A stretch of 64,000 nucleotides of DNA from an uncultured Bacilli bacterium (GCA_947591215.1 CANQCZ010000001.1:27399-91398), one strand, 5' to 3'; counted from the first letter of the stretch, positions 31,396-53,903 are shown. The notes: a model not told the origin generated them from the sequence alone. A program made the numbers and translations.

Positions 31396-31608
31396 TTAGT
31401 AACCCGCTCCTTGGCATCCACAGCCACATCCGTTTGATCCTAGAAATGTTTGTCCTTGATTGCTGGAACATCCGCAACCGATGATGACTAAAAGTATGAA
31501 GAGAACAAGGATGATGGCAAAGACTCCACCCCAGCCGTTACTAGAACCGGAAGAAGGATACGCATATCCGCCTTGTGGATAACCGTAATTTTGACCGTAA
31601 TAGTACAT
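31396..31608 (-). CDS. Tiny Gly/Tyr-rich membrane protein (YjcZ-like family)
   Basis: MYYYGQNYGYPQGGYAYP…FAIILVLFILLVIIG is the pattern of small YjcZ-type Firmicutes proteins. A Cys-Gly-rich tail follows. The terminator hairpin GCGGGTT-TTAGT-AACCCGC overlaps the stop. Confidence 0.55.
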   Translation of the reverse strand: MYYYGQNYGYPQGGYAYPSSGSSNGWGGVFAIILVLFILLVIIGCGCSSNQGQTFLGSNGCGCGCQGAGY

Positions 31609-31737
31609 AGAGCACCTCCTAACTAGTCTATTGTATGAGAATTATTTTTAAATGTCTCAAAATTTACAAATTTGATATTTTTCTACAGGGTTAGTTTACT
31701 TTTAACTAACATATCATATTCTATAAAGGTGATTGAA

Positions 31738-32106
31738 ATGAATAAATTTGAAGAATTTAAAGCATTCGCCCATACAAAACCCTTTTTAAAGGAACGTGTA
31801 AGTCGCCATGAAACAACATGGCAAGAGTTATACGAAAGATACGATATTTATGGAGAAGATGATGAAGTTTTTAAAGAAAAACCACCTGAGGATACCTCTT
31901 CTAAGAAGGAAGAAAAAGACACTAAAGACGGTGGTTTAGGTTCTCTTTTTGACGTCATCGCTTCATTTGATGCCGATAAGATCAGCGAAGGGTTGAATGG
32001 TATGAAAAAAATTCTCAATGTACTAGCGGAAGTCACCGCTTCTGATGAGCCAAGCGTGATGTCTAAAAGAAAAATGACACGGCCGTATTCGAGGGATGAT
32101 GATTAA
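31738..32106 (+). CDS. Hypothetical protein (YlbD-like by position)
   Basis: RBS AAAGGTGA before ATG 31738. Acidic 122-aa protein upstream of YlbE/YlbF-like genes. Confidence 0.45.
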   Translation: MNKFEEFKAFAHTKPFLKERVSRHETTWQELYERYDIYGEDDEVFKEKPPEDTSSKKEEKDTKDGGLGSLFDVIASFDADKISEGLNGMKKILNVLAEVTASDEPSVMSKRKMTRPYSRDDD

Positions 32107-32315
32107 TGAGAAGTGAGATTATAATGGCATTGGATAAAGATGTTGATTATTATGTTTTCATGAGAGAAAACCCCAAGTGGTATCGGATCTTAAGCCGCGA
32201 TCCAACTCAGTTAAAAGCTTTTTTTGAAGAATACAAATTAGTTCGTAGAAAACGTGTCGTCGATCGCATCGAAGATATTTCAATGATGGTTAATTTGGCA
32301 AAAGAGTTAATGTAA
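32106..32315 (+). CDS. Small protein, YlbE-like
   Basis: 69 aa, overlapping its neighbours by start/stop. Synteny with the ylbD-ylbE-ylbF arrangement. Confidence 0.45.
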   Translation: MRSEIIMALDKDVDYYVFMRENPKWYRILSRDPTQLKAFFEEYKLVRRKRVVDRIEDISMMVNLAKELM

Positions 32316-32345
32316 CAAAATCGAGGATTATGATATACTTTAAAT

Positions 32346-32699
32346 ATGCAACAAGATGATTTAGAAAATAAAATCGAAGCGATAGCGCACGAAATAAAAA
32401 ACATGGATGAAAGAAAAAAACTTGTGGAACTTTCCACTAAAATGGAAAATGATCCGGAAGTGATAAAGCTTTCATTAATTTTTCAAAATGCCCAAGAAAA
32501 TTATAATTTTGTTTTAAAGCATTTTAAAGAGGATAGCGAAGAAGTAAAAAAAGCCCAAAAAAGCCTTTACGAAGCTAAAAAAAATTTAGATGAACATCCG
32601 TTAGTAAGAGAGTATAACGCTTTTTATGTCGCATCCAACGAACCTTTAAGATATTTAGAACTAAATTTGATTTATAAATTAAATTCAAAAAAATTATGA
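32346..32699 (+). CDS. YheA/YmcA/YlbF-family regulatory protein
   Basis: 117-aa helical protein (…KLVELSTKMENDPEVIKL…YNAFY…) matching the Com_YlbF family pattern. Confidence 0.6.
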   Translation: MQQDDLENKIEAIAHEIKNMDERKKLVELSTKMENDPEVIKLSLIFQNAQENYNFVLKHFKEDSEEVKKAQKSLYEAKKNLDEHPLVREYNAFYVASNEPLRYLELNLIYKLNSKKL

Positions 32700-33093
32700 A
32701 ATACTTCGTAGGAAGTATTTTTAATTTGCTCAGAAAATGGTATTCGAAAGTGAAAAGGGGAATGGGAGTTCAATCAAATAATGTGGTATTGTTTTTTAGA
32801 AGTTTTTTCCTTAAATTCTTTTCAAAAAATAGTAAATATATCTTTAATAGATACATCGTTTTCAAGCTTTTTAGCATAATAACAATTATTAAGTTTTCTT
32901 ACTCATTATAAAATGCTTCTTTACCATAAAAAGAAGCTATTTTAATTGTAATCTAAAAATTGAATGCTAATTCAAGTTCTTATCGATTGTTAAATCGATT
33001 TTGTTCTATAAAAATTTTTACAATTTATTTGTTGCGCCGGCAATTCTATTGATAATAAATTATTGATGTGTATTGTTATTAGGGAAATTAAAT

Positions 33094-33369
33094 ATGATAA
33101 AAAGAGGGAATATAGCAAATTTAGAAAAATTTTCTAATCAAAATATTTTTAAAATTTCTTATGTATTAAAGGTAGTAGATTATGCAACGGGAACGATTTA
33201 TTATTCCGAGTTTTATTATGCTTATGTAAGTAAACAAATAATTACAATGGAAAAAATTTCGGAGCGATTAAATATATCGAATAATACTTTAAAGCAACAC
33301 ATAAAGAAAATTAATAGCATTATAAATGCCGTAGAAACAATTACAGATGATGATTTTATAAAAATATAA
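33094..33369 (+). CDS. Small hypothetical protein with a helix-turn-helix-like segment
   Basis: …MEKISERLNISNNTLKQHIKKIN… resembles an HTH. First gene of the AT-rich island. Confidence 0.4.
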   Translation: MIKRGNIANLEKFSNQNIFKISYVLKVVDYATGTIYYSEFYYAYVSKQIITMEKISERLNISNNTLKQHIKKINSIINAVETITDDDFIKI

Positions 33370-33476: not shown

Positions 33477-33938
33477 ATGAATCTTGAGGAATTGCAAGAC
33501 TTTAAATTTTATTTATCATTAAGCTTTGTGATAGTGTTATCATCTATACTTACTATCATTACGGTGGAAATTATAAAGCTAATTCTTAAAAAGAAAAAAA
33601 TAATCACCGAAGAAACAGACGCAGATAAAAAAGACCAGTTACTAATTAAAATCGGTCGATTTGTAGCGCTTCTAATTTATACCATAGTATATCTTATAAA
33701 AGAATTTCTTCTTAAGCATGATCTCATATTCAATGAAGCGTTATTTATCGGACTTCTTTCTGGAGGTGCAGTTACCTTAACAGTTGCTAAAGGATTATAT
33801 ACATCCTTTAGACAAAGTCAAAAAAAGAAAAAGGTGTTCGATAAATTAACTGAAGCGGAAAGTAAGTTAGAAGCTTTACAAAAAGAAGCGCTTGAAAAGC
33901 AAACGAAGATAATATTAACCAGAAAGGAGAGGAACTAA
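33477..33938 (+). CDS. Membrane protein (3 TM) with a C-terminal Lys-rich coiled coil; holin-like architecture
   Basis: RBS AAAGGAG upstream. TM segments, then …KVFDKLTEAESKLEALQKEALEKQTK. Confidence 0.5.
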   Translation: MNLEELQDFKFYLSLSFVIVLSSILTIITVEIIKLILKKKKIITEETDADKKDQLLIKIGRFVALLIYTIVYLIKEFLLKHDLIFNEALFIGLLSGGAVTLTVAKGLYTSFRQSQKKKKVFDKLTEAESKLEALQKEALEKQTKIILTRKERN

Positions 33939-33939
33939 C

Positions 33940-34605
33940 GTGAAATTATTAATGTCATCAATTATTGTACCTAAAATACAACTCCAATATATAAGGGATA
34001 GCAATAAAATTTTTAGAGTAATATCTGAAAGCATTGATCCATTATTTAAACAATTGTTATCTGATAAAAGTATTCGTGTGCAAGTATGGTTGGAACGTGA
34101 AGTTAGAAAATTATCTAATTCAAGAATAAAAAGAAGTTGGGTTCATTCATGCGATATGTCAAATAAAAGACCGACCAAGTTATTTACTAACGGAGAGTAT
34201 AATTATGGTGGTGGCAATGGCTGGGGTTGGAAAGGTAATGATGTGCCATCTTATACAACAACGAATGGAATTGTACCAACTGAATTTGAGGTCACATTAT
34301 CAGATATACAAAATGATTTATTAGTTATAAAGTTTCCTGTAGTTGATATATTTAGCAATATTTTAAAAAAGAAAAAAAGTGGCACATCCGCTAAAGATGG
34401 TGATTTGATTGAGGATTTAGCAATTATATCTAGAGGACGAGCCACGTACCAAATTATAAGAGCTAAATTAGTAGTTAATTATGCTGGTAAAGTCATAATG
34501 AGTGAACCAAGTAATTCGATTATGCTTGGGATTCATAGGAAAAAAGACGCTGTCTTTGATTCGAAAAACTTAGAAAGTTTTATAAAGATCGGAAGGTTCA
34601 TTTAG
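33940..34605 (+). CDS. Hypothetical protein (221 aa)
   Basis: GTG start 6 nt after RBS AAAGGAGAGG, adjacent to the previous stop. No recognised family. Confidence 0.5.
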   Translation: MKLLMSSIIVPKIQLQYIRDSNKIFRVISESIDPLFKQLLSDKSIRVQVWLEREVRKLSNSRIKRSWVHSCDMSNKRPTKLFTNGEYNYGGGNGWGWKGNDVPSYTTTNGIVPTEFEVTLSDIQNDLLVIKFPVVDIFSNILKKKKSGTSAKDGDLIEDLAIISRGRATYQIIRAKLVVNYAGKVIMSEPSNSIMLGIHRKKDAVFDSKNLESFIKIGRFI

Positions 34606-34727
34606 TATAAAGAACATTGATTGTTTGTCCATTAGCTCTAATTATTACTATATTCAAGATAGTTTTAATTTTGATATTTGGCAACCTGTCTAAGCCATGG
34701 TGTGAAACGTTCTAATTCTTATACTAT

Positions 34728-34750
34728 AAATCGGAGTTTAAATCCGATTT
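34728..34750 (+). promoter_or_regulatory. Hairpin immediately upstream of the rhs-operon RBS
   Basis: AAATCGGA-GTTTAAA-TCCGATTT stem-loop, 25 nt before ATG 34776. Possible terminator or attenuator separating the upstream three-gene module. Confidence 0.3.
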
Positions 34751-34775
34751 TTAATATTAAGAAAGGAAAATAAAA

Positions 34776-36323
34776 ATGAAATCATTTACACTTAAAGACA
34801 AAACAAATAAAAACATTAATATTGAAACAGCGAAGTTGGATATTGAAAATTCACGTCAAGAAGATATTTCGAAGCGTACGTTATTTGCTAAGCATTTTAT
34901 TAACGATGATGGAACTTACACTATGGAAGTAAGTCCATTCCCAATTCATTATTACGATACTAAAACTAAATCTTATGAAGAGATTGATAATACCCTTGAA
35001 GAATCTAATGGTAAGTTCTCAATTAAAAAAAATAAGATGAAATTATCATTTAATAAAGAAATTAGCGATGATGCTCCATTGTTTAATATCGAAAAAAAAG
35101 GACATCGTTTTCAACTTTTTTATCTTGGTAAAAAAGAGAAGGTTGGAAATAAAGTTTTAAGAAAAGTAAAAGGGAAAACTAAACGTTTTACAAAACAGAT
35201 AAGTAACTTAACTTATGAAGAAATTGAACCAAAAATCGATTTAGAATATAGCGTTCAATACAATAGAATTAAAGAAAACATTATTATTAAAGAACGGCAA
35301 GAAAGCTATGAATTTTCTTTTTTAGTAAATGTAGGGACATTAACTGTCAGTTTAAAAAAAGATGATTCATGTATTGAATTAGTAGATGCACATCAAGAGG
35401 TTCAATATATAATTCCCTCACCGATCATGTTTGATCAAAATAATAATTCTTCTACCGATTTAGGATATGAAATCGAAATAAGTGAAGATGGTAATCTTAT
35501 TTTCACCTTAAAAGCAGATGCTGATTGGATCAATTCTAATGAACGGGCTTTTCCCGTCGTTATTGATCCGCAAGTTGTGATAACAATTGATGATAATAAT
35601 ATCACAAAACATTTTCAGATAAAAAATAATGTTGCTTCAGTAGCGGGTACCAAGGGATATATAGATAATTCATCGTCATCGAATGCATATTTAATTGCTA
35701 TTGATGTAAGTAGTCTCTTATCGACAAAAATATCTTATGCTGAACTGATTTTTGAAAATGCTAATACTATGCCAAATAGTGCGTCGATACAGGCAAAGTA
35801 CTACAATATTAATAATGATGAAGTAAATAGTTCTTCTTTTACGATTAATACATCTAAGGAAAGCAATTTTACAAGTTTCACAGGACCAACATCAGGAAAA
35901 GCCTCACTTATTATGCCGGGAGCTTTAAATAAATGGATAAGCGAAAAAAAACAAATTGGAGCATTATTATTTAGATCGACAGGTTTATATGCTGGTTCAT
36001 ACACTTTTTATCCACCGACATTAAGTATTAAATATACTTTACAAATTTCAGCTCCTAGTTTTTATATCAATTTGAAAAATGATTGTATTACAGAAATCGT
36101 TACTGGCGCTGACGTCGGATTAAGATACGCTGCTAGAGAAAAAGGAGTTTTAACTACTTATGTCGATCAAACAAGTAGTAAAGTTTATCAAATTTTAAAT
36201 ATACAAGACAGGATTTATACGCGAAGAAATAATAACGATTTAGATAATTGGAACGAGTGGGAAAAACATAGTTTACGGGCTAAATTACAAAATGGTAATT
36301 TGTATTTAACAGATGAAGATTAA
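34776..36323 (+). CDS. Hypothetical 515-aa protein co-oriented with, and 15 nt upstream of, the Rhs gene (putative Rhs partner/accessory protein)
   Basis: RBS GAAAGGAAAA upstream. No signal peptide. Beta-rich, Asn/Ser-rich sequence. Tight linkage to rhs suggests an operon. Confidence 0.55.
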   Translation: MKSFTLKDKTNKNINIETAKLDIENSRQEDISKRTLFAKHFINDDGTYTMEVSPFPIHYYDTKTKSYEEIDNTLEESNGKFSIKKNKMKLSFNKEISDDAPLFNIEKKGHRFQLFYLGKKEKVGNKVLRKVKGKTKRFTKQISNLTYEEIEPKIDLEYSVQYNRIKENIIIKERQESYEFSFLVNVGTLTVSLKKDDSCIELVDAHQEVQYIIPSPIMFDQNNNSSTDLGYEIEISEDGNLIFTLKADADWINSNERAFPVVIDPQVVITIDDNNITKHFQIKNNVASVAGTKGYIDNSSSSNAYLIAIDVSSLLSTKISYAELIFENANTMPNSASIQAKYYNINNDEVNSSSFTINTSKESNFTSFTGPTSGKASLIMPGALNKWISEKKQIGALLFRSTGLYAGSYTFYPPTLSIKYTLQISAPSFYINLKNDCITEIVTGADVGLRYAAREKGVLTTYVDQTSSKVYQILNIQDRIYTRRNNNDLDNWNEWEKHSLRAKLQNGNLYLTDED

Positions 36324-36338
36324 TGGAGAAAATAAATA

Positions 36339-39300
36339 ATGGACAAGGATTTTCAAGATATTGAGAGAGTTTTTTATAATGGTAATGAAGTTGAAAGAGT
36401 ATTTTATAATGGTCAAGAAATAGTGAAAAACATCTATTATCGTTTTTCTAATGAAAAAAGCCGCATTGGACAAACTGAATTAAGTTATCAATGTGGGGTA
36501 GGAGAGGCAAAAGTAAATGTTTATACAGGACGCCTATCTTTAATTCATCCGGATATTAATATAGGCGCGGGTAATTTTGAAATCGGGATATCTCATATTT
36601 ACAATAGTTCTTGGTCAACTAAATTTGATAATGTGATGGGAAATGGTTGGAAACTTAATTTACAGCAATATTGTTATCCATATGATGATAACGATGAAGA
36701 AAGACTTCTTGGTTATGAAAAAGGAGATTATGTTTATATAGATGCTGAAGGTTATAAACATCGTTTCGTTATATATAAAGAAAAAGATGGTGTAGCATAT
36801 TATTACGATGATGCAAAAAATAATTTAATCTTAAAGAAAATATCAGAAAGCAAATTAGAGATCAGCAATCCAACAGGCTCTACATTATGCTTTAACAAAG
36901 ATGGTCAATTATATTCTATTGTTTCTCCATACAATACAACTATTGTTAAACATATTGAATACAAGGATGGTAAAATAGATTCTGTATATGATAAACGTAA
37001 CTCAAATCGAGTGCTTTATTTTAAGTATAATAAAGAGGATTTACTAAGTGAAATTAGTTGTGAAGAAAATTCAATTATATTAAAGACATTACATTATTTT
37101 TATGATTCAGATAATAATCTTATTAGAATCACTAAGCAAGTTAATACATCTACTAAGACGGTAGCTTTTTTTAGCTATGATTCAAATGATTTAATTCATA
37201 TAATGGATGGAGAAGATAATTCGGCAATATTATTCTCATATAAAAATTTCGATGATAAATATGTAACTAATGTTAAAATCGGCACAGGTAAAAAAACATT
37301 TTCAAATTCTTCAAAAATTGATTTAAAAGAAATTAAAAATGAAACAAAGTTTGATTATGAATCGACCTCTAATACTTTAGTGACGACTGAAAAGGGAATC
37401 ACATATCTTTATCAATTTAATAAACGTGGATTTACTTCAGCAATTTTTGAAAAAGATGGTCATAATTTACGTACTTTAACAAAGGAAAATGGTTGGTCAT
37501 TAAGCAATGGTAATCAAACTACCTCAATCAATGGAAAACATAGTGAAATTGTATATGGTGAAACTTACTTATTAACTAAAGAAAAATTGTACAATTTTCT
37601 AAATATATTTGCTGGTGCAACTAATTATTCTTATGTTGAAAATTATACGTTATCATTTTGGATTAAATTGAAATCAGTAGTATATAATGATGTTTTGGCA
37701 AGATTAAAGATTATTACTGTTCCAGCTCTTCAAGAAGTAACCTTAAATTTTAAAAGTAGGATTGATCATACAGCTTATGATGTGTGGCAACATGTGACTA
37801 TCCCGATTGATTTCCAATTATTCGAAGCTAATTATGATAATTCTGTGGACTATAGTGAATCTGGAATTCAAAATGAAGTCCCTAAATTAAAGGAAAACAT
37901 AAATGAAATGCGAATTAGCTTAGAAGGTATTCCATTGGATTCCTCTTTTGAAATTGCAGATATTCAAATAGCGGTTGGATCTCAAAATCATTTAGTTATA
38001 GCTGGAAAAAATTTTGAAGATGCCGATTATATTTATTGTTATATTGGTAATAAGTGTGAAAAGAAGGCTATTAATTCAAACTTTTTTATGACTTTGCAAG
38101 ATGTCATTTTAACATATCTTAATATGCATAAATGCGCAAATGAAAATGATAAATTTGATATGGTTGCTTGCGATGGAACAAAAGTAATCGAGGTAAACGC
38201 TATATCGTTTACAACACCTAAATTTAATGAATGTAAGTTTAAATTTTTAGATGATGGTAAACCAAATTTCTATTTAGTATGTAAAAATCGTAGAGCTCAA
38301 AGTCAATGGTTAGTAACCGAAACTGATTTTACATTTCGCAATGATTATATCGAGCAAAGAACTTCGGTTGATGTGATAGAAAAATATTATATTTGTATTG
38401 ATGAAAATAGCAAATCTAGAAATTATAGCTGGTATTTTTACAATGGTTTATTAAAAGCTCAAAAAGACGCATATGGAGTAATCACTGAAAATAAATATGA
38501 TGATTATGGAAATCTTATTGAAATAGTTATTTACAATGAAAATGATTCAAATAAACTAATTAGAACTATTACATTTGATGAATTTCAACTTAATGATTCG
38601 AAATTAAGTAAAGTTCAATATCAAATAAATGACAATGGCGTTTTAAGTAAACAAACTTTTAATTTACCATTTTTTCAATTGGATTCTGAGACTGTATTTA
38701 ATGGTGATACGACTTTATATGAAAAATGCTACATATATGATGATATTTTTGGTGACAAATTAACTAAAATATCTGTAAAAAGCGATTTGAAAAAGATTGA
38801 TACGTATTTTAAATATACTGATGAAGGATATTTAAATGATATTTCTGATGATTCTAAAAATCATTATCAGTTTGAGTATGATATTTTTGGAGACATTACC
38901 TCATATAACTTGATTGATGAAGATAATAATGTTACTGAATTATTGCAAAAAGAAAATATAAACTATGATAATCATTTCGAGGCCATTATCGAAAAATATC
39001 CATCGGATAATTCATCATTCACTAGAGAGTATTTGTATGATCAATATAATAGACTTACATCGATTCGCGAAAATGAAGAACATATTAAATTTGATTATGA
39101 ATCAAACGAAGAAAGCCGGATGTTGGCTCAAGTAGAATATATTGATGACCCGTATACAAAACAAAAAAATGTTATTAAGTATGATTCAAATACTGGATTA
39201 TATACGTATAGTACAATTAATGAAGAGAGTAGTACTAGTAATCAAGGTTTATCAATCGTTCAAATTGGACAAAATAAAACAAAATATATATTATGTGATG

Positions 39301-41066
39301 GAGAAAACAAAACTGAGCGAATCAGTGAATTTATTTATGATGATAATGAAGAAATAGAAAACAAAATATATCTTAACCCACGTCTTGCAAAGACTAAAGA
39401 TTACCTAGTCGATAATGAATCTGAAGAATTTAATTTTTCGTATGAATGGGATGGATTAGGTAGATTAAAAAAACAACAATATTCTGATGAAACTAAATTT
39501 TATGAATATTCCTATAATGATTGTGGAAGAATCAATAAAGTTGAATTTCATTTTAATGAGAATAATTTTGTTTTTCAATATACATACGATTCTATAGGTA
39601 ATATAAAAACTATCAAGGAAAATATCAATAATGATAATAAAATAGAATATACTTATGATTCATTTAATCAATTATTATCAGAAGTTAATTCAAAATTAGG
39701 TATTAATAATAAATATACTTATGATTCTAAAGGAAGATTATATGAAATTAATATAAATAATTCTACAAAGAAAATTTTCAATTACCATAGTAAAGGTAGG
39801 CTAATAGAACTACAATCCGGTAATACGACCTATAAGTATACCTATACATCAAATGGTAATTTAGAAAAAATATATATAAATCAACTAGATACGCTAGATA
39901 CATTAGAGCATGTATTGATATGGGAAAGACATAGTTTACTTAAAGAATACGATAAAAATCAGTATTTCTATAATTATCAAGGAATAAGATATAAAAAGAT
40001 TGTTAATGGAATAACTAAATTCTATTATCTAAGTGGTGAAAAAATTTTAGGTGAAGATTGGTCAAATGGAATTAAAATACGTTATTTCTATGATGCAAAT
40101 GGTATTGCAGGTTTTACATATAAAGGAAAAACATATCATTACATAAAAGATATACAACAAAATATCAGAGCAATTCAAAAAGAATGTGATATAATATGTA
40201 CATACGAATATGATGCTTATGGGAATTGTTATACAGCAACTTATGAAGACATTGATGATATTGCCACCATAAATCCATTTAGATATCGTGGATACTATTT
40301 TGATGTGGAGACAGGACTATATTATTGCAACTCTAGGTATTATTCACCAGAACTATGTAGATGGCTTACACCTGATTCAATTGAATATTTAGACCCTGAA
40401 TCTATTAATGGCTTAAATCTATATTGTTATTGTTATAATAATCCAGTAATGTACGCAGATCCTAGTGGACATTTACCAGAATGGGCTTGGAAATTAATTA
40501 TTGGTACAAGTTTCATTTTAGTTGGTGCATTGGTTACAGCAGCTACTGCAGGAGCAGGAGCAACTTTTTGGGCAACCTTTGGTTCAGCATTATTAACATC
40601 AACTATTCAAACTGGAATAAGTGCTGCTGTTAGTGCTAGCCTTGGTTTTATTGTTGGAGGTATTTCCACTGGTACGTTGGAAGGTGCTTTTACTGGAATG
40701 ATTGATGGTACGGTTGATGGTTATATGTGGGGAGGTATTATTTCTGGCGGTTCGCAAATTCTAAGTGGTTTAATGAAAGTTGGAAATGGTATATCTTCTG
40801 GTAGGATTGAGGCATTGTATAAGTCTGAAAATTCAACAACATTATTTAATTATAATAATGCTGCTGGAAAGAGTAAATTCAGAATAGATGTCGCTAAAGG
40901 TAAAGTTAAATATCCCGGTGGCAAAACAGGTTTCTTGAGTGGGAAAGAACTATATGGGTTACATTACCATTTTGGTAAAACTAATTCTCTAAGGGAACTA
41001 CATAGATTCTTTACTCCTGGTGTTGTTAATGGATTTATTTCTTCTTTGTTAGATTATTTATTTTAA
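36339..41066 (+). CDS. Rhs/YD-repeat polymorphic toxin: Rhs core ending in …YCYNNPVMYADPSGH, then a roughly 197-aa variable C-terminal toxin domain
   Basis: Multiple YD repeats (YTYDSIGNI, YTYDSFNQL, YTYDSKGRLYE, YEYDAYGNCY), the RHS repeat-associated core (…FRYRGYYFDVETGLYYCNSRYYSPELCRWLTPDSI…) and a DPxG-type cleavage motif (ADPSGH) at aa 1373-1378. The sequence downstream of that point is unrelated among the five copies. Confidence 0.9.
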   Translation: MDKDFQDIERVFYNGNEVERVFYNGQEIVKNIYYRFSNEKSRIGQTELSYQCGVGEAKVNVYTGRLSLIHPDINIGAGNFEIGISHIYNSSWSTKFDNVMGNGWKLNLQQYCYPYDDNDEERLLGYEKGDYVYIDAEGYKHRFVIYKEKDGVAYYYDDAKNNLILKKISESKLEISNPTGSTLCFNKDGQLYSIVSPYNTTIVKHIEYKDGKIDSVYDKRNSNRVLYFKYNKEDLLSEISCEENSIILKTLHYFYDSDNNLIRITKQVNTSTKTVAFFSYDSNDLIHIMDGEDNSAILFSYKNFDDKYVTNVKIGTGKKTFSNSSKIDLKEIKNETKFDYESTSNTLVTTEKGITYLYQFNKRGFTSAIFEKDGHNLRTLTKENGWSLSNGNQTTSINGKHSEIVYGETYLLTKEKLYNFLNIFAGATNYSYVENYTLSFWIKLKSVVYNDVLARLKIITVPALQEVTLNFKSRIDHTAYDVWQHVTIPIDFQLFEANYDNSVDYSESGIQNEVPKLKENINEMRISLEGIPLDSSFEIADIQIAVGSQNHLVIAGKNFEDADYIYCYIGNKCEKKAINSNFFMTLQDVILTYLNMHKCANENDKFDMVACDGTKVIEVNAISFTTPKFNECKFKFLDDGKPNFYLVCKNRRAQSQWLVTETDFTFRNDYIEQRTSVDVIEKYYICIDENSKSRNYSWYFYNGLLKAQKDAYGVITENKYDDYGNLIEIVIYNENDSNKLIRTITFDEFQLNDSKLSKVQYQINDNGVLSKQTFNLPFFQLDSETVFNGDTTLYEKCYIYDDIFGDKLTKISVKSDLKKIDTYFKYTDEGYLNDISDDSKNHYQFEYDIFGDITSYNLIDEDNNVTELLQKENINYDNHFEAIIEKYPSDNSSFTREYLYDQYNRLTSIRENEEHIKFDYESNEESRMLAQVEYIDDPYTKQKNVIKYDSNTGLYTYSTINEESSTSNQGLSIVQIGQNKTKYILCDGENKTERISEFIYDDNEEIENKIYLNPRLAKTKDYLVDNESEEFNFSYEWDGLGRLKKQQYSDETKFYEYSYNDCGRINKVEFHFNENNFVFQYTYDSIGNIKTIKENINNDNKIEYTYDSFNQLLSEVNSKLGINNKYTYDSKGRLYEININNSTKKIFNYHSKGRLIELQSGNTTYKYTYTSNGNLEKIYINQLDTLDTLEHVLIWERHSLLKEYDKNQYFYNYQGIRYKKIVNGITKFYYLSGEKILGEDWSNGIKIRYFYDANGIAGFTYKGKTYHYIKDIQQNIRAIQKECDIICTYEYDAYGNCYTATYEDIDDIATINPFRYRGYYFDVETGLYYCNSRYYSPELCRWLTPDSIEYLDPESINGLNLYCYCYNNPVMYADPSGHLPEWAWKLIIGTSFILVGALVTAATAGAGATFWATFGSALLTSTIQTGISAAVSASLGFIVGGISTGTLEGAFTGMIDGTVDGYMWGGIISGGSQILSGLMKVGNGISSGRIEALYKSENSTTLFNYNNAAGKSKFRIDVAKGKVKYPGGKTGFLSGKELYGLHYHFGKTNSLRELHRFFTPGVVNGFISSLLDYLF
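40308..40472 (+). repeat. rhs core-end repeat, master copy (inside rhs)
   Basis: About 162 nt encoding ETGLYYCNSRYYSPELCRWLTPDSIEYLDPESINGLNLYCYCYNNPVMYADPSGH. It is repeated four more times downstream at about 93 % identity. Confidence 0.9.
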
Positions 41067-41931: not shown

Positions 41932-41980
41932 TGAAAGACTTTCACGAGCAAAATAATTTTATAAAAGGAGGATGTTAAGT

Positions 41981-42430
41981 ATGAAAATATATTATAAATT
42001 AAGTGATAATTATAATCCAAATTATATAGTAAAATATGATGATAACTCTTTTGGAGCTTATGGAGTGTATTTTGATTTTCAAGTTGTATTAACATCAGCT
42101 GGTTCAGTTATTTTAAATTTTGATCTTTATTCAAAGAGATGTGAATCATGTGAAGGATATCTAGCAATTAAAATTAATAAGAAAACTAAATACGAAAATA
42201 TAGATATTGAAAATTATAGTAATGGTGAATTATTAATTGAACTAGATGATTTTGAAAAAGAGGTACCTATGTGTGAATACTTATTAGACGGTAAGTTTAA
42301 ATATGATATTAACAAATCACGAATTTGCATAGGTAATATTAATAGTAACGAAGTTATTATGTTTGGCAAAGGTCAATATGCATCCTTTCAAAATGGCAAA
42401 TTAATTGGTGTAATTATAGATTTAAAATAA
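41981..42430 (+). CDS. Candidate immunity protein of cassette 2
   Basis: RBS AAAGGAGG is 9 nt before ATG 41981. 150 aa, contains CESCEGY. Follows the orphan C-terminal domain. Confidence 0.5.
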   Translation: MKIYYKLSDNYNPNYIVKYDDNSFGAYGVYFDFQVVLTSAGSVILNFDLYSKRCESCEGYLAIKINKKTKYENIDIENYSNGELLIELDDFEKEVPMCEYLLDGKFKYDINKSRICIGNINSNEVIMFGKGQYASFQNGKLIGVIIDLK

Positions 42431-42470
42431 ATAGCAAATTACTTTCACAAGCACAATATGTAAGTTTACT

Positions 42471-43196
42471 GAAACAGGACTATATTATTGCAACTCTAGG
42501 TATTATTCACCAGAACTATGTAGATGGCTAACACCTGATTCAATTGATTATTTAGACCCTAAATCTATTAATGGCTTAAATTTATATTGTTATTGTTATA
42601 ATAATCCTATAATGTACGCAGATCCTAGTGGGCATTTTGGAATATTAGCATTGATTGCAATAACTGGATTTTCAATGCTAATAGGTGGAGCTGTTCAGCT
42701 GATATCAAATGCGATGGCTGGTAAAACTGGAAGTGAATTATGGCACGGAGTTGCAGGAGCGACCTTAGGAACTGGTGCTAATGCCTTAGCATTGTGGTTG
42801 TCACCATTTACGGGCGGAGCATCATTAGCTTTTGCTACAGTAATATCGGCTGGCATTCAAACTGGTGTTGATACGCTTGAAACAATCATCAGAGGTGAAA
42901 AAAATAAATGGATGGCAAACTATTGCTGATTTTGGTATTAATTTTGCAACAATATTTGCAGGCAACTATATAGGTAGCAAATTAATTTCAATAAATTAAG
43001 GATGGTTTCAACCTAAAAAGTTTTTGAGTGTTTTTACAAAATCATATGGTCAAAAAATCTTATTGCAATCATCAATAGGTGCTGGACTATCTGGAATAGT
43101 AAACTTAATAAAAAAATTTGATTTTAATAGACTTGAGTTGAAAGACTTTATTCCAAACATACCTGTTCCAATGATTCCAAATATTTTCGGAGATTA
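42471..43196 (+). pseudogene. Orphan rhs C-terminal cassette 3, disrupted by two frameshifts
   Basis: Core-end repeat 42471-42635 (…MYADPSGH), then a Gly/Ala-rich hydrophobic region. The reading frame breaks at about 42929 (…MANYC stop) and continues in the +1 frame (WQTIADFGINFATIFAGNYIGSKLISIN) and then another frame (GWFQPKKF…PNIFGD stop 43196). Confidence 0.65.
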
Positions 43197-43211
43197 AGGA
43201 GATTAAAAATT

Positions 43212-43598
43212 ATGATTATAAAAGATAAATTAATAAAAGAATATCCATTAACTAAAAAAATAGATTGCTTTTTTGAATGTTTTGAAGTTATAAAAAGAAG
43301 ATATGTTATTTTCTATGATGAAAAAATTAATAAAGAAAATATTAAATCTTTACTTGATGTATTTAATGAAAATACAAATAATAATTTTTCTAAGAAAAAA
43401 ACATTAATTGTTGTTGCATGTACTAATGAACAGTTTAATAAAGAAGATTTATTATTTTTTAATGGTGTAGATACATTTATTGTATATTATTTAATAAATG
43501 AAAATACAAATGAAATTTATTTTAATGATCAAAAGATGTTGTGGTTTAGTATAGATTGGAAAAAAATAATTAAAAAATTTAATGAAATATTAAAATAA
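43212..43598 (+). CDS. Candidate immunity protein of cassette 3
   Basis: RBS AAGGAG upstream. 128-aa Lys/Asn-rich protein with no family. Confidence 0.5.
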   Translation: MIIKDKLIKEYPLTKKIDCFFECFEVIKRRYVIFYDEKINKENIKSLLDVFNENTNNNFSKKKTLIVVACTNEQFNKEDLLFFNGVDTFIVYYLINENTNEIYFNDQKMLWFSIDWKKIIKKFNEILK

Positions 43599-44019
43599 TT
43601 ATCAAATTACTTTCACAAGCAAAATAATTTTATCAAAGATAACGCTATTAACAATTTTATTCATTTAAAACAAATAATTAGAGATATGCTCATAAAAATA
43701 TTAAATATAAACAAAAGAAATAATAATATGATAAAATATAGATGTCTAGTTCTATGCTTTATTTTACGAGAGGTAAAATGAAACAAAAAGAATTATATAA
43801 GACAGCAATATATAACTAGAACTACTGGTATTGCAGCAAAAGCTTTAAAACTATTAGGTCAAAATTTAGTTAAACAATAGAATAAAATGGTTATTGACCA
43901 AGTAGGGAAAAATTTTAGGAAAGCATTATCATTTGGTGGAATAGCATTATTATTTGGAACTGTTTTGGTAAAAGATTACTATACGACTGGATTAATGATA
44001 ATTTCTAGGGGGACTTAAT

Positions 44020-44493
44020 ATGTTAGATAATATTTTGATTATAACAATTTTATTTTCTATAGTATTAAGTTTTTTAATAGTTAAAGTTTGGCGAAAAAAA
44101 CACTTTGTAAAATCGTTATACATTGATCAAGGCGTTTCAATAACATTTTATGTCATTGCGCTTGCTTTCACAATTGTCTTACTAACAATATATTACATAC
44201 AAGCATATAATTGGTTGTTTTTGCTAATGCTATTATTATATGATTTATGTTCATTATTTATATTTTGCATTTTAACAACTACTTGTATTTATTTAAAAGA
44301 TAACGTTGTGATTAAAAAAAATATTTTTATTACAAAAAAAATATTGCTTAATAAAGAAACGAAAATAATCGAAAAAGCAACCAAAACAATTATTAAATCT
44401 AAAAATAAATCCATTTCTATTAGTTCAAGACATTTAAATGGAAGTATAAGAAGGTTTATATATGATATTAAGATAATAATTAATGAGTCATAA
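44020..44493 (+). CDS. Membrane protein (4 TM), possible orphan membrane immunity protein
   Basis: RBS AGGGGGA upstream. Hydrophobic. Sits between cassettes 3 and 4. Confidence 0.45.
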   Translation: MLDNILIITILFSIVLSFLIVKVWRKKHFVKSLYIDQGVSITFYVIALAFTIVLLTIYYIQAYNWLFLLMLLLYDLCSLFIFCILTTTCIYLKDNVVIKKNIFITKKILLNKETKIIEKATKTIIKSKNKSISISSRHLNGSIRRFIYDIKIIINES

Positions 44494-44535
44494 TAAGATA
44501 ATAAAGTCGAATAGCATTATATTAGATTTTTTTAC

Positions 44536-45191
44536 GTTACTATTCACTAGAACTATGTAGATGGATTACACCTGATTCAATTGATTATTTAGATCCAGAA
44601 TCTATTAATGGCTTAAATCTATATTGTTATTGTTATAATAATCCAGTAATGTACGCTGATCCTAGTGGACATTTTGCAATTAGTTTAACATTACTTGGAT
44701 TAATTGTTGGAGCCGTGGTTGGAGCAACAATAGGAGGAATCGCTGCTTATAATATTGCAAAGGATCATGGTGCTGAAGGATGGGAATTATTTGGATGGAC
44801 TATGGCAGGTATAGTTGGAGGAGGTATAATTGGTGGCGCTTTAGGTGCGGGAATTGGAGCGATTGTTACAAAAGTGACTGGAGTTATAGGTTTATCAATA
44901 ACGAAATATTCTATTATACCAATTAAAGGTACAACAATTTTAGGAGATATGCCTGGATATATTGGAGCAGCACAAGCAACGGGTTTAGGATATTATTTAA
45001 TTTCAAATAAATTGTGGGAAAACTTAGATGCAACTCAACGCTGGCTTAACAATATGCAATATATTAAAGATGCTAATACATTAGGATCTCAATTTGCGTT
45101 GGTTCCTGATTTTGTGGTTAAAGCAGGCACAACATTATGGCAGGAAATACAATATTTAATTGAAAACGGCATTCCTTGGATATTATTCTAA
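44536..45191 (+). other. Orphan rhs C-terminal cassette 4: 5'-truncated core-end repeat (44536-44672, starting at RYYSLELCRW) plus a roughly 170-aa C-terminal domain
   Basis: …NPVMYADPSGH, then FAISLTLLGLIVGAVVGATIGGIAAYNIA… (Gly-zipper hydrophobic segment), then a variable domain. Upstream in-frame stop; the only Met is the internal MYADPSGH. Confidence 0.7.
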
Positions 45192-45218
45192 AAACAATTT
45201 GGAGGGTAAGTAATAATT

Positions 45219-45518
45219 ATGTATAATAATTTACTTTATAAGACATTTGATAAAAAATATAAAGAAAAATACAATAAATTTTTATTGTTGTGTAATAAAT
45301 ATAATGCAAAAATTATTAAATTTGATTATTACAAAAAAGTATTTGGAAATTTTGTAATTGAGATAGAATATAACGAAAAACATCACATAATTATAACGGA
45401 TAGAGGAGACATAATTTTTAATGGAAAATATATATGTGATAACTCGTATCTTAGTACAGGACAAGACACATTTAATAAATTACTTGAGATGATAGAAAAA
45501 AATCTGTTTAACAAATAA
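45219..45518 (+). CDS. Candidate immunity protein of cassette 4
   Basis: RBS GGAGGG upstream. 99 aa. Confidence 0.5.
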   Translation: MYNNLLYKTFDKKYKEKYNKFLLLCNKYNAKIIKFDYYKKVFGNFVIEIEYNEKHHIIITDRGDIIFNGKYICDNSYLSTGQDTFNKLLEMIEKNLFNK

Positions 45519-45685
45519 ATCACATATTGGTAAAATAAAAATTTTGATTATAGAAATCTAAATTTAAAAAACAACAAAAATAATTTAAAAAAATGAATAG
45601 TTAGCAAATTACTTTCACAAGCAAAATAATTTTATTAAAATTAACTTTATTAACAAATTTATTAGTTAAAATAAAAATTAATTAT

Positions 45686-46510
45686 GATGTTGAAACAGGA
45701 CTATACTATTGCAACTCTAGGTACTATTCACCAGAATTTTGTAGATGGATTACACCTGATTCAATTGAATATTTAGACCCTGAAAGTATTAATGGCTTAA
45801 ATCTATATTGTTATTGTTATAATAATCCTATAATGTACGCAAATCCTAGTGGACATGCTCCTTGGTGGAGTTGGGCATTATCAGGATTACAATTAGTAGC
45901 AGGAGTTGCATTATGCTTTGTTCCAGGCATGCAAGGATTAGGTGTTTCATTAGCAATTGGCGGTGCAACTGGATTAATTATGAATGTGTTAGAGCCACAA
46001 TTAGCTCAAGCAATTGGAGGAGTAGGATCTATGGCAAATGGCTATGGCGCCATTTCTACAGGTATTAGTTTGATGAGCTTAGGTGGATGGGTAGTAGTTG
46101 CTGGTTTGTGCTTAACAGTAATTGGTTTTGGAACAATGGCTTTTGGTGCAAACGAGGTTATAGATGCTATGACTGATACAAATTACATTCAAAAGTGGAC
46201 TGGTATGAGTGATTCGGCATATGCTTGGTCATATTTGGGATTAAACTTTGCATCAAGCATCGGTCAAGCAGCAGGTAATGTGTATCGTTTACATGCTACA
46301 AGAGAAATAAGATTTAATCATAGTGGCACTGAAATTAGAGGATATAGATATCGTGATAGAAAAGGTAATCCATTCTTTGATTTTGATTATCCACATAAAG
46401 ATATACCTTATAATCATTGGCATGGATGGGATGGGCCTAGATTAACTAATAGAACAGGAGATCATTGGAGTTACTTAAGATTAATTTTGTGGATGTTAGG
46501 AGGAATGTAA
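45686..46510 (+). other. Orphan rhs C-terminal cassette 5: core-end repeat (45686-45856) plus a roughly 217-aa C-terminal domain
   Basis: …NYDVETGLYYCNSRYYSPEFCRWITPDSIEYLDPESINGLNLYCYCYNNPIMYANPSGH, then APWWSWALSGLQLVAGVALCFVPG… (hydrophobic Gly-rich segment), then a His/Trp-rich domain (…HWHGWDGP…). Confidence 0.7.
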
Positions 46511-46864
46511 ATGAAATTAAAACGTAAATTTAAACATAATTATGGTAGTGACATACTAAATGAAGCTTATGAAAAACTTTTTAATGGAGAACATATGTCC
46601 TATGAGGAATTTGTAATTATGCTTTCAACAAATGATGAACTATATTTTTATTATATTGAAAAAGATGGTGAAAAAGAATATCAAGTTGAACATTGGGGTG
46701 ATGGCACTGTATATATGTGTGTTACTAGATATGAAGATGGTAAAAAGATTCTAGAAAGAAATGAAAAATTTAATTCTATTATTGAACTATTAAATGATTT
46801 TAGAATTGAAGGTAAAAGCATATACGAAATATGGCCAGATGTTATGTTTGCAAAGTCAAGATAA
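46511..46864 (+). CDS. Candidate immunity protein of cassette 5
   Basis: RBS AGGAGGA is 7 nt upstream. ATG immediately follows the cassette-5 stop (TAAATG). Confidence 0.55.
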   Translation: MKLKRKFKHNYGSDILNEAYEKLFNGEHMSYEEFVIMLSTNDELYFYYIEKDGEKEYQVEHWGDGTVYMCVTRYEDGKKILERNEKFNSIIELLNDFRIEGKSIYEIWPDVMFAKSR

Positions 46865-46991
46865 CAAAATAATTATGTTTTAACACAAACTTGCAGGGGT
46901 GTGTCTATTCAATGGAAAATCTTTTATCAGCTCATTAATGATAATCATATATGGTTAAAATGGTTTAGTTATTATTTATAGGAGAAATCAA

Positions 46992-47402
46992 ATGGAATTC
47001 GTTATTTATAAAGAAAATTTTGTTGAAGAATTTCACAAAAACTTTTTACCATTATTTTCAATTAAAAAATTAAAAAAATTAAATTGTTATGCTCCTAACC
47101 ATGGCTATTTATGGAATGCTTGTGAACATAATCTAGTTGAAAATTTAAAGGGCAAAGATGCAATGTTAGCATATGATAATATTGATAAGACAGGTGCAAT
47201 AGAATTTCAATATGATAATGGATTTATGGGTGATGATATTTCAAAACCACTTTCAAAAGAAAATGATAATTCAATAAAAATTCAAAATAATGGTTTGATT
47301 GAATTTTATGTAATTGGTTTAAATTTCTCATGGTGTTATATTGTGACACACGAGCCAGATGGTTGTGGTCCATATTTTATTATTAATAAAAATAAAAGTT
47401 GA
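46992..47402 (+). CDS. Hypothetical protein (136 aa), possible orphan immunity gene
   Basis: RBS AGGAGAAA upstream. Last gene of the AT-rich island. Confidence 0.45.
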   Translation: MEFVIYKENFVEEFHKNFLPLFSIKKLKKLNCYAPNHGYLWNACEHNLVENLKGKDAMLAYDNIDKTGAIEFQYDNGFMGDDISKPLSKENDNSIKIQNNGLIEFYVIGLNFSWCYIVTHEPDGCGPYFIINKNKS

Positions 47403-51631: not shown

Positions 51632-51640
51632 AAAACCAAA

Positions 51641-53779: not shown

Positions 53780-53795
53780 ATTAACTCCTTTTTTG

Positions 53796-53811
53796 TGGAA
53801 ATCGATTTCCA
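53796..53811. promoter_or_regulatory. LacI-type operator, perfect 16-bp palindrome TGGAAATCGATTTCCA, abutting the RBS of the lipoprotein/GH81 operon
   Basis: Self-complementary with a central CG. Two near-identical copies occur at 57201-57216 and 57368-57383, each directly 5' of an RBS. Confidence 0.6.
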
Positions 53812-53903
53812 TACACATTTATATTAACATAAAGCGCTTACAATGTCAAAAATAAAAAAAGGCAAATGCAGGCTTTTTAAATCGAAGTTAAGTGATAAGA
53901 AAA

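Follow-up and report, generated by a model that had tools for sequence, protein, structure and literature searches.

A WapA-type Rhs toxin locus of an uncultured Bacilli bacterium with a probable detached glycan-binding subunit and a candidate holin-like export protein

A locus for a large Rhs toxin was found in a stretch of 64,000 nucleotides (nt) from the genome of an uncultured Bacilli bacterium (GCA_947591215.1 CANQCZ010000001.1:27399-91398), hereafter the window. The Rhs gene is preceded by genes of a protein of 153 amino acids (aa) with three transmembrane segments (three-TM protein), a soluble protein of 221 aa and a protein of 515 aa. With a slight balance of probability in its favour, the locus is best explained as a WapA-type Rhs locus, the glycan-binding subunit of which is detached, reassembled with Rhs by docking and exported in a holin-like manner. 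Of the source genome, the analysis covered the window. The elements concerned are as follows.

33477-33938, plus strand: 153-aa three-TM protein of holin-like topology, first in the cassette after a helix-turn-helix (HTH) gene; candidate export determinant
33940-34605, plus strand: 221-aa soluble accessory protein; GTG start, 1-nt gap after the three-TM gene, found in split-type loci only
34776-36323, plus strand: 515-aa protein
36324-36338, plus strand: spacer of 15 nt between the 515-aa and Rhs genes (TAA TGG AGA AAA TAA ATA), containing two TAA stops in frame and GGAG as ribosome-binding site
36339-41066, plus strand: Rhs protein of 1575 aa

The 515-aa protein is, very probably, the N-terminal DNRLRE-type module of WapA-like Rhs proteins, supplied in trans. 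Its parts, described with the help of an AlphaFold2 (AF2) model and its per-residue confidence score (predicted local distance difference test, pLDDT), are the following.

34776-34859, plus strand: aa 1-28, hydrophilic tag beginning MKSFTLKDK (pLDDT <50 for aa 1-24)
34860-35579, plus strand: aa 29-268, N-module, a predicted beta-supersandwich of galactose-mutarotase-like fold, ending in the invariant PVVIDP
aa 270-422: predicted CBM96-like jelly roll
36048-36323, plus strand: aa 425-515, C-terminal extension found in the split type only; candidate docking domain

A database search with the 515-aa protein gave 39 homologues. Four full-length relatives, 490-548 aa in length and 33-57% identical, contain no signal peptides. 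The other relatives match aa ~29-270 only, start with clear Sec signal peptides and run on into CBM96 (PF24517), RicinB, C39-like or BACON domains and, in one case (P0028), into Rhs repeats. Residues 74-272 of the 515-aa protein share 38% identity with residues 66-259 of the Rhs protein of locus L008, in which the next domain is DUF6531 (aa 420-510). The N-module was also found by tblastn in 78 plasmid records, Bacillus, Paenibacillus and Streptococcus among them, nearly all annotated as 'DNRLRE domain-containing', 'polymorphic toxin-type HINT domain-containing' or 'YD repeat-containing'; the two plasmid proteins whose N-termini were read, from B. mycoides (2197 aa) and P. urinalis (1722 aa), have Sec signal peptides. 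CBM96/DNRLRE is a chondroitin-sulfate-binding module (PDB 8wab, Pfam PF24517, NCBIfam DNRLRE). The model of the 515-aa protein contains the CBM96 beta-jelly-roll fold, whereas no match to PF24517 or NCBIfam DNRLRE was found at E<=0.1. Direct assignment of the 515-aa, 221-aa and 153-aa proteins to families of Pfam, NCBIfam and PHROGs gave nothing significant.

An earlier note on this DNA had suggested that the upstream protein could be a separately encoded N-terminal carrier, a plug or a chaperone. The first suggestion is borne out by the homology of the 515-aa protein to the N-terminal region of fused Rhs proteins. The role of a plug is ruled out by the DUF6531 lid, which is located in the Rhs protein itself (aa 58-143), and that of a chaperone does not agree with the glycan-binding type of fold and with relatives that are Sec-exported extracellular proteins. 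The 515-aa protein was also checked for membership of an unrelated well-known family, and the family found is a related one. A signal-less relative of the N-module, P0015 (MGIIKLKK...), with a DUF3990 C-terminus, is encoded on an integrase-bearing element (L003, 6432-7892) with neither an Rhs nor a three-TM gene nearby; the signal-less module is thus not always tied to the three-TM protein.

Related loci were assigned to types from gene-context look-ups, followed by hidden Markov model (HMM) searches across all fetched loci. Three types were distinguished.

Split loci (n=7; the window, L019, L001, L002, L004/5, L012, L013): three-TM gene, 221-aa gene, gene of a ~500-aa partner, Rhs gene
Fused loci (L008/9/15, L010, L011, L014, L016, L017, L018; L020 is without the module): three-TM gene directly before the gene of a giant signal-less Rhs
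Sec loci (n=5; L006/7, L021, L022, L023, L024): no three-TM gene; signal peptide read in L006/7, L021 and L022

The loci are partly redundant: the split loci number six apart from L019, which is near-identical to the window; L004 and L005 encode identical proteins, and L013 is close to them; L008, L009 and L015 are the same or near-identical, and L014 is close. In the fused loci the Rhs proteins are ~1,900-2,200 aa long where complete (most of them 2111-2175 aa), and their N-terminus is a module like the 515-aa protein. According to the HMM searches, the 221-aa gene, the C-terminal extension of the partner and the N-terminal repeats of Rhs are shared by all split loci and were found in none of the fused or Sec-type loci. 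The extension, with the motifs P.YY.NLKN..ITE ... G[IV]LTT ... K[VI]YQ ... W.EW ... LYL[TSN]D, is kept in all split-type partners, and its HMM matches these alone. Two fused Rhs proteins were read residue by residue, and no counterpart was found in either: in L008 the CBM96-like region leads directly into DUF6531, and in L010 the extension is likewise missing. Hence, split loci alone have the 90 C-terminal aa of the partner and the 40 N-terminal aa of Rhs.

The Rhs N-terminus of the split type contains the following element.

36339-36422, plus strand: Rhs aa 1-28, three tandem decapeptides MDKDFQDI / ERVFYNGNEV / ERVFYNGQEI; candidate docking peptide

The copies ERVFYNGNEV (36363-36392) and ERVFYNGQEI (36393-36422) are identical at 24 of 30 nt and 8 of 10 aa. 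They are units 2 and 3 of a triple decapeptide present at the Rhs N-terminus in all seven split types (7/7), of the form [M-x-phi-x-(Y/F)-(N/K)-(N/Q)-x-x-phi] followed by two copies of [x-phi-x-Y-N-(G/N)-x-x-phi]. It is absent from fused Rhs proteins and was found nowhere else in six-frame translations of all fetched loci. The tandem repeat reported in the earlier note is accordingly real, 3 nt away from the place given there, and is part of a conserved triple and not a local duplication; recent tandem duplication of ERVFYNG is ruled out by the conservation of the triple repeat in divergent orthologues.

The C-terminal extension and the YNG decapeptides may dock non-covalently with each other and so restore the equivalent of the fused protein, a proposal whose chances we regard as evenly balanced. 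It weighs against docking that it is drawn from the phyletic pattern only and that the C-terminal region of the partner is modelled with low confidence, the extension (~90 aa) having low pLDDT in the AF2 model of the 515-aa protein alone.

The 515-aa and Rhs open reading frames (ORFs) share a reading frame. A spacer of 15 nt in the same frame is found in the window (36321-36341), L019, L004 (2915-2935), L012 (12825-12845) and L013 (2936-2956); the spacer of L001 has 10 nt, and the partner gene of L002 is broken shortly before its end. Between the partner and Rhs ORFs there are one or two stops in frame. The same frame and the constant spacer are probably a relic of an ancestral fusion or a result of constraint on ribosome-binding-site spacing.

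Such an arrangement could also arise from a nonsense mutation in a fused wapA-like gene or from an assembly error, with the 515-aa ORF as a non-functional remnant. The shared frame of ORFs 15 nt apart agrees with this, as do arbitrary splits in P0028/L006, L016 and L023 and the late stop in the L002 partner. However, both ORFs are intact, the same split point with its own ribosome-binding site and ATG and a spacer of 10-15 nt recurs in seven loci (six besides L019), the partners of which are only 33-57% identical, and the split-specific additions and the accessory gene co-occur strictly. A pseudogene or artefact is therefore extremely improbable, and this conservation across divergent split loci rules it out as the origin of the split.

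Two of the broken genes are described here in their own right. In L002 (7700-7900) the partner gene stops ~25 codons before the conserved end ...LYLTDED, as a decaying copy or through an assembly error. L023 (NZ_CP135437, 453-11380), a Streptococcus plasmid, has the arrangement srtB / membrane protein / wapA, as in Streptococcus suis, and the annotation divides its wapA between two ORFs that overlap, encoding a DNRLRE protein (1035 aa) and an Rhs protein (2171 aa); splits of this gene at other positions thus exist in isolate genomes.

Known export signals are absent from the split pair. The N-termini of the 515-aa and Rhs proteins are hydrophilic, with no Sec signal peptide or TM anchor, as judged by hydropathy and inspection and not by a trained predictor. 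A Kyte-Doolittle scan showed no hydrophobic segment in the 515-aa and 221-aa proteins, and the sole hydrophobic segment of Rhs is located inside the C-terminal toxin region (aa 1382-1411). Upstream of the ATG, the open frame extends for only 5 codons in the 515-aa gene and 1 codon in the Rhs gene, which leaves no room for a hidden signal peptide. Domains LXG, WXG100, PAAR, LysM or other wall-binding domains were not found in the 515-aa and Rhs proteins (Pfam, NCBIfam, E<=0.1), nor were small helical partner proteins, LysM/CWB repeats or sortase found in the cassette (Pfam, NCBIfam). The claims of the earlier note that Rhs is devoid of a signal peptide, LXG/WXG100, PAAR and an anchoring region, and that its partner 15 nt upstream likewise has no signal peptide, are supported by these domain searches, the hydropathy, the frame limits and the ORF coordinates. 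Its conclusion that the export route is not evident stands for known signals; the upstream three-TM and 221-aa genes of the same cassette had been overlooked.

Thirteen signal-less proteins, partners or fused Rhs, have a common N-terminal motif M-K-K/x-[IFV]-x-[LV]-[KS], followed by a Lys/Glu-rich stretch (for example, MKKIVVS, MKKIILS, MNKIVLK, MKSFTLK). It may serve as a tag for recognition, or else be what is left of the n-region of a signal peptide since lost.

The three-TM protein has an acidic N-terminus and hydrophobic segments TM1 (aa ~12-33), TM2 (~59-80) and TM3 (~88-108). The loop between TM1 and TM2 contains 8 K/R, and the Lys/Glu-rich C-terminal tail of 45 aa contains 13 K/R and 7 D/E; by the positive-inside rule, an N-out/C-in topology is predicted. 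Across split loci the protein is 61-67% identical and better conserved than the cargo. The family is small, with 34 clusters at 90% identity and 45 at 50% among 1.84 billion representatives. In each bacterial locus examined, its gene directly precedes the Rhs cassette, and in many cases the stop and start codons overlap or abut; it is absent from all Sec-type loci (5/5). In this sample, about a dozen independent loci against five, there is either a signal peptide or a three-TM protein, never both and never neither.

The most distant members of the family that could be placed, P0134 (E 5e-20) and P0148 (E 1e-8), were found in myovirus contigs. The phage homologues (198-214 aa; L025 8001-8645, L026 3976-4572, L027 1012-1608) are encoded between the gene of a Gp23-type major capsid protein and genes of neck (gp13/adaptor), sheath and tube proteins. 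A search of the phage contigs for homologues of the 221-aa or 515-aa proteins was negative, as was tblastn against plasmids, INPHARED and IMG/VR with the three-TM protein and its phage homologue as queries. From the myovirus contigs, the family has phage relatives.

Dedicated holin-like export of signal-less large toxins has precedents (PMC3369941, PMC8878733, PMC10847048), and holin-like export by the three-TM protein is a serious candidate here, with chances somewhat short of even. The fuller proposal is more tentative still: in gut spore-forming Bacilli, a phage-derived, holin-like three-TM protein, dedicated to signal-less Rhs, may replace the Sec signal of WapA-type relatives, with the 221-aa accessory protein and the YNG-docked glycan-binding subunit added in split loci. 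According to this scheme, the glycan-binding subunit would dock on the N-terminal YNG tag of Rhs, giving the equivalent of the fused protein, and the 221-aa protein would serve as an assembly or targeting factor. The three-TM protein would stand in for the Sec signal peptide in this clade and act as a holin, through which the pre-folded signal-less complex would leave the cytoplasm, either non-lytically or via lysis of a subpopulation. Outside, the supersandwich/CBM96 subunit would bind a glycan on the surface of the producer or the target, the Rhs cocoon would then deliver the C-terminal toxin, headed by its Gly-rich hydrophobic segment, and the downstream immunity protein would protect the producer.

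A number of observations weigh against this scheme. The phage homologue belongs to a structural module, with no recognisable lysis gene beside it, and neither the cassette nor the surroundings of the phage homologues contain a recognisable endolysin or peptidoglycan hydrolase. Described holin families gave no match; SieB and the phrog_1299 'holin' appeared only below threshold (best E 0.005-0.06), and identity with holins of the TcdE/phiCD119 type was rejected (hhalign against the phiCD119 holin, 0.15% probability). The three-TM protein of the window weakly matches the C-terminal TMs of SecDF (NCBIfam, E 7.3e-5), a match that would allow for a Sec-accessory role. For the 221-aa protein, a role is drawn from gene context and phyletic pattern only, and the negative result for a secretion system of type VII (T7SS), given below, spans the window and not the whole genome.

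The SecDF match also bears on Sec-assisted export, in which the three-TM protein would be a SecYEG accessory similar to the 'SecF-like' protein of S. suis, the hydrophilic N-terminus a cryptic signal, and the proteins would cross unfolded. Export of WapA in S. suis depends on a small cognate membrane protein whose gene directly precedes wapA (PMC12704120), and the three-TM gene occupies the same position; the N-terminal motif conserved in 13 signal-less proteins fits this reading as well. However, the S. suis substrates keep a classical signal peptide (PMC12704120), whereas no hydrophobic H-region is present here; SecDF was matched by only 3 of 33 members of the three-TM family, the three-TM profile found no SecDF chain in PDB, and the distant relatives of the protein are phage-encoded. 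Identity with the streptococcal 'SecF-like' protein was rejected: hhalign against its 208-aa homologue from the Streptococcus srtB-wapA plasmid locus gave 0.2% probability. Sec-assisted export is unlikely.

Slightly less likely again is that the toxin leaves by a system whose genes lie elsewhere in the genome (T7SSb, a phage-tail-like particle or the like), in which case the three-TM and 221-aa proteins would serve, for instance, regulation, surface anchoring of the complex or self-protection. Only 64 kb of the genome is in view, and the signal-less Listeria Rhs protein LrhA is a predicted T7SS substrate, as cited in PMC12704120. Against this, the cassette contains neither LXG/WXG100 domains nor small helical partners, and no T7SS, PAAR or LXG components, EssC/FtsK-like genes or tail genes were found among the large ORFs of the window, which are housekeeping or glycan-related. 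A system elsewhere would also leave unexplained the invariant, coupled pairing of the three-TM and Rhs genes and its mutual exclusion with Sec signals.

The 221-aa protein is a predicted beta-sandwich, with the invariant motifs KRSWVHS.D, Y.YGGG.GWGW and TTNG.VPTE.E in loops modelled with low confidence; it has no hydrolase fold, and sequence searches of PDB with the three-TM and 221-aa profiles gave no matches. Between the 221-aa and 515-aa genes lies the following region.

34606-34775, plus strand: spacer/leader with a terminator-like hairpin at 34728-34750 followed by a T-run (terminator scan)

The hairpin is located ~25 nt before the start codon of the 515-aa gene, and equivalents are present in L001, L002, L004, L012 and L013, with stems that differ by locus (CGGA/TCCG, CGGT/ACCG, CTGGGAT/ATCCCAG, CTGGA/TCCAG). 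The spacer also contains conserved TTGAT and GGTCTAA boxes. No Rfam match was found in the leader and spacer regions, and RNAalifold gave a weak signal on the leader spacer, with the hairpins misaligned. The leader hairpin may be an attenuator setting the ratio of the three-TM and 221-aa proteins to the 515-aa and Rhs proteins. The translational coupling of the 221-aa gene to the three-TM gene, together with the hairpin spacer before the 515-aa/Rhs unit, pairs the 221-aa protein with the membrane protein; it may belong with it functionally, as an adaptor for the split cargo.

In the split type the 221-aa gene is found instead of peptidase and anti-sigma genes of the fused type. Regions upstream of fused loci were visible in four or five cases (L008/L014, L010, L011, L017; L016 partially). 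In L008/L014 (6789-9847), L010/L011 (7096-9884) and L017 (782-3026), an anti-sigma-like protein of 199-209 aa with one TM and a secreted S8 subtilisin-like peptidase of ~540 aa with a signal peptide are encoded just upstream of the three-TM gene. A gene of an extracytoplasmic function (ECF) sigma factor was found farther upstream in L008/L014, L010 and L011 and was undetected in L017; L016 keeps only a fragment of the S8 peptidase. The peptidase may process exported Rhs.

The Rhs protein itself was identified by RHS_repeat PF05593 (E 1.3e-10), TIGR01643, NF041261 and TIGR03696 (E 5e-22) in Pfam and NCBIfam. Its further regions and the genes of the toxin end are as follows.

36510-36767, plus strand: aa 58-143, DUF6531, the N-terminal lid of the Rhs shell (Pfam PF20148, E 9.6e-6)
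36768-40472, plus strand: Rhs/YD-repeat shell and Rhs-associated core (aa 1291-1378), with DPSGH at aa 1374
40476-41066, plus strand: C-terminal toxin region, a Gly-rich hydrophobic segment (aa ~1382-1470) followed by a toxin domain of ~100 aa
41070-41417, plus strand: putative cognate immunity protein of 115 aa, abutting the toxin, with no family match
42612-42929, 44649-45191 and 45833-46510, plus strand: three orphan toxin tips starting with MYA[DN]PSGH (translations)

DPSGH is an aspartyl-protease cleavage motif (DPxG-type autoproteolysis) ahead of the variable C-terminal toxin, for which no Pfam or NCBIfam family was found. Identity to the Rhs protein of L019 (12863-17605), the closest public relative, amounts to 93% for aa 1-1444, and the remainder is unrelated. 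On comparison of the sequences, this is classic C-terminal toxin displacement, the switch being located inside the hydrophobic pre-toxin segment and not at DPSGH. By analogy with the architecture of Rhs loci, the 115-aa ORF is taken to encode the cognate immunity protein. In the array of orphan tips (41972-47402; the tip cassettes span 42612-46864), each tip continues with a Gly-rich hydrophobic segment, and small putative immunity ORFs are interleaved; the toxin domains of the tips have no Pfam or NCBIfam assignment, apart from one faint Gly-zipper match. At the opposite end of Rhs, AKVNVYTGRL (aa 57-66) resembles the N-terminal autocleavage site PINLNTGNF of S. suis WapA (PMC12704120), and this likeness suggests that the docking peptide may be cut off the cocoon after assembly.

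The locus occupies a low-GC island (~32.9-47.4 kb; ~25-30% GC versus 35-40% in the flanks), in which the genes are arranged, all on the plus strand, in the order HTH, 153-aa three-TM, 221-aa, 515-aa, Rhs, immunity, orphan tips. A bidirectional terminator-like hairpin at 32915-32937 marks the island boundary. The first gene is the following.

33073-33369, plus strand: small HTH regulator, an ORF of 98 aa, probably ~91 aa from the ATG at 33094 (Pfam HTH_11/HTH_10)

Homologues of 87-95 aa are encoded upstream of the three-TM gene in L002, L005, L008/L014, L016, L018 and L019; identity with the L008_87 protein is 44%. To the right, on the minus strand (47423-53818), are genes of a 1402-aa GH81 enzyme with F5/8 type C and Ig-like domains and of a 725-aa protein with no Pfam family, which make up a glycan-degradation locus adjoining the toxin island. 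The left flank contains chromosomal housekeeping and sporulation genes, namely those of RNase J, peptide deformylase, Maf, YjcZ, YlbD and YlbF; immediately left of the island (31396-32699) are genes of a YjcZ-family sporulation protein (minus strand), a YlbD coat-protein-like protein and a YlbF-like protein. With these genes beside the island, the host is taken to be a spore-forming member of Bacillota. L019 is a rabbit-gut metagenome-assembled genome of an uncultured Bacilli bacterium, and its 153-aa and 515-aa proteins are 100% identical to those of the window. The remaining carriers are labelled as uncultured Bacilli or Bacillales, 'Mollicutes' UMGS1395 and Coprobacillus.

Proteins reach the coat and exosporium without need of a signal peptide. 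With this precedent, a spore-forming host and the sporulation and coat genes YjcZ and YlbD beside the island, one may suppose that there is no active export and that the toxin assembles in the cytoplasm, to be released by autolysis or by lysis of the mother cell in sporulation, or deposited on the spore surface. This is improbable: it leaves the dedicated three-TM gene unexplained, homologous modules elsewhere have Sec signals and are hence extracellular on vegetative cells, and the sporulation genes lie beyond the low-GC island, as ordinary neighbours on the chromosome.

Among known systems, the preferred reading of a split WapA-type locus with holin-like export draws first on WapA-type Rhs loci (B. 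subtilis WapA, S. suis). Common to them and to the locus of the window are the DUF6531 lid, the YD shell, the Rhs core with DPxGH, the variable C-terminal toxin with a putative immunity protein, putative orphan tips, the N-region of an unnamed beta domain and DNRLRE/CBM96, and the gene of a cognate small polytopic membrane protein just upstream. The S. suis WapA-CT1 locus has the order srtB / secF-like / wapA, the DUF6531 region of its WapA is the lid closing the Rhs column, and the N-terminal 'NCWB' fragment consists of an unknown N-domain, DNRLRE and LysM (PMC12704120); the 515-aa protein has the architecture of NCWB apart from the 425-515 region. Unlike WapA-type loci, the present one has no signal peptide, LysM/wall-binding repeats or sortase, its N-module is separate, the 221-aa gene is additional, and the upstream membrane protein is not detectably homologous to the SecF-like counterpart of the Streptococcus plasmid.

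Holin-dependent toxins are represented by TcdE with TcdA-TcdB in C. difficile, TcsE with TcsL in P. sordellii and the type X secretion system (T10SS) with Tc toxin in Yersinia entomophaga, the TcC component of Tc toxin being an Rhs protein (PMC3369941, PMC8878733, PMC10847048). Similar to these systems, the locus combines a large signal-less toxin with a small phage-related three-TM protein with a charged C-tail and with a dedicated regulator, HTH here and an ECF sigma factor in fused loci. It differs in that its three-TM protein, a putative holin, has no sequence relation to TcdE-type or other described holins; genes of an endolysin or a spanin are missing, and the toxin to be carried is an interbacterial Rhs and not a glucosylating or Tc toxin. 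In Tc TcB-TcC and in type VI secretion system (T6SS) Rhs with PAAR, VgrG and Eag, delivery is likewise determined by an upstream partner of a two-polypeptide or adaptor-assisted Rhs; in contrast, the 515-aa protein contains no YD repeats, beta-propeller, SpvB, TcdB_mid or PAAR and is neither a half-cocoon nor a TM-helix chaperone. The locus has the repeats and the core with cleavage motif of the Rhs family and does not have the defining features of Sec/WapA export, T7SS, T6SS or Tc architecture, and its three-TM protein fits no described holin family.

In open-access papers and preprints, no account was found in which a Gram-positive Rhs toxin has a link to a holin-like protein, and a 2022 review of holin-mediated secretion does not mention Rhs. 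The toxin and the N-module are known, while the split with docking parts, the 221-aa accessory protein and the coupling of the three-TM protein to signal-less Rhs appear to be undescribed.

Passage of proteins of >300 kDa is unexplained even for Rhs/WapA forms with Sec signals in Gram-positive bacteria (PMC12704120). The loci described here offer a natural comparison within one toxin architecture, with Sec-signal fused, signal-less fused and signal-less split forms, and one small membrane protein family tracks the loss of the signal peptide, so that export becomes a genetically testable question. As parts of the machinery, three uncharacterised families are nominated, those of the three-TM protein, of the 221-aa protein and of the candidate docking extension together with its YNG tag. 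If the proposal is true, secretion of the holin/T10SS type would extend from clostridial glucosylating and Tc toxins to interbacterial Rhs weapons of Gram-positive bacteria, and phage-derived release systems would have a link with competition between bacteria of the gut microbiota. In that case, the split glycan-binding subunit would amount to a receptor-binding module open to swapping or engineering.

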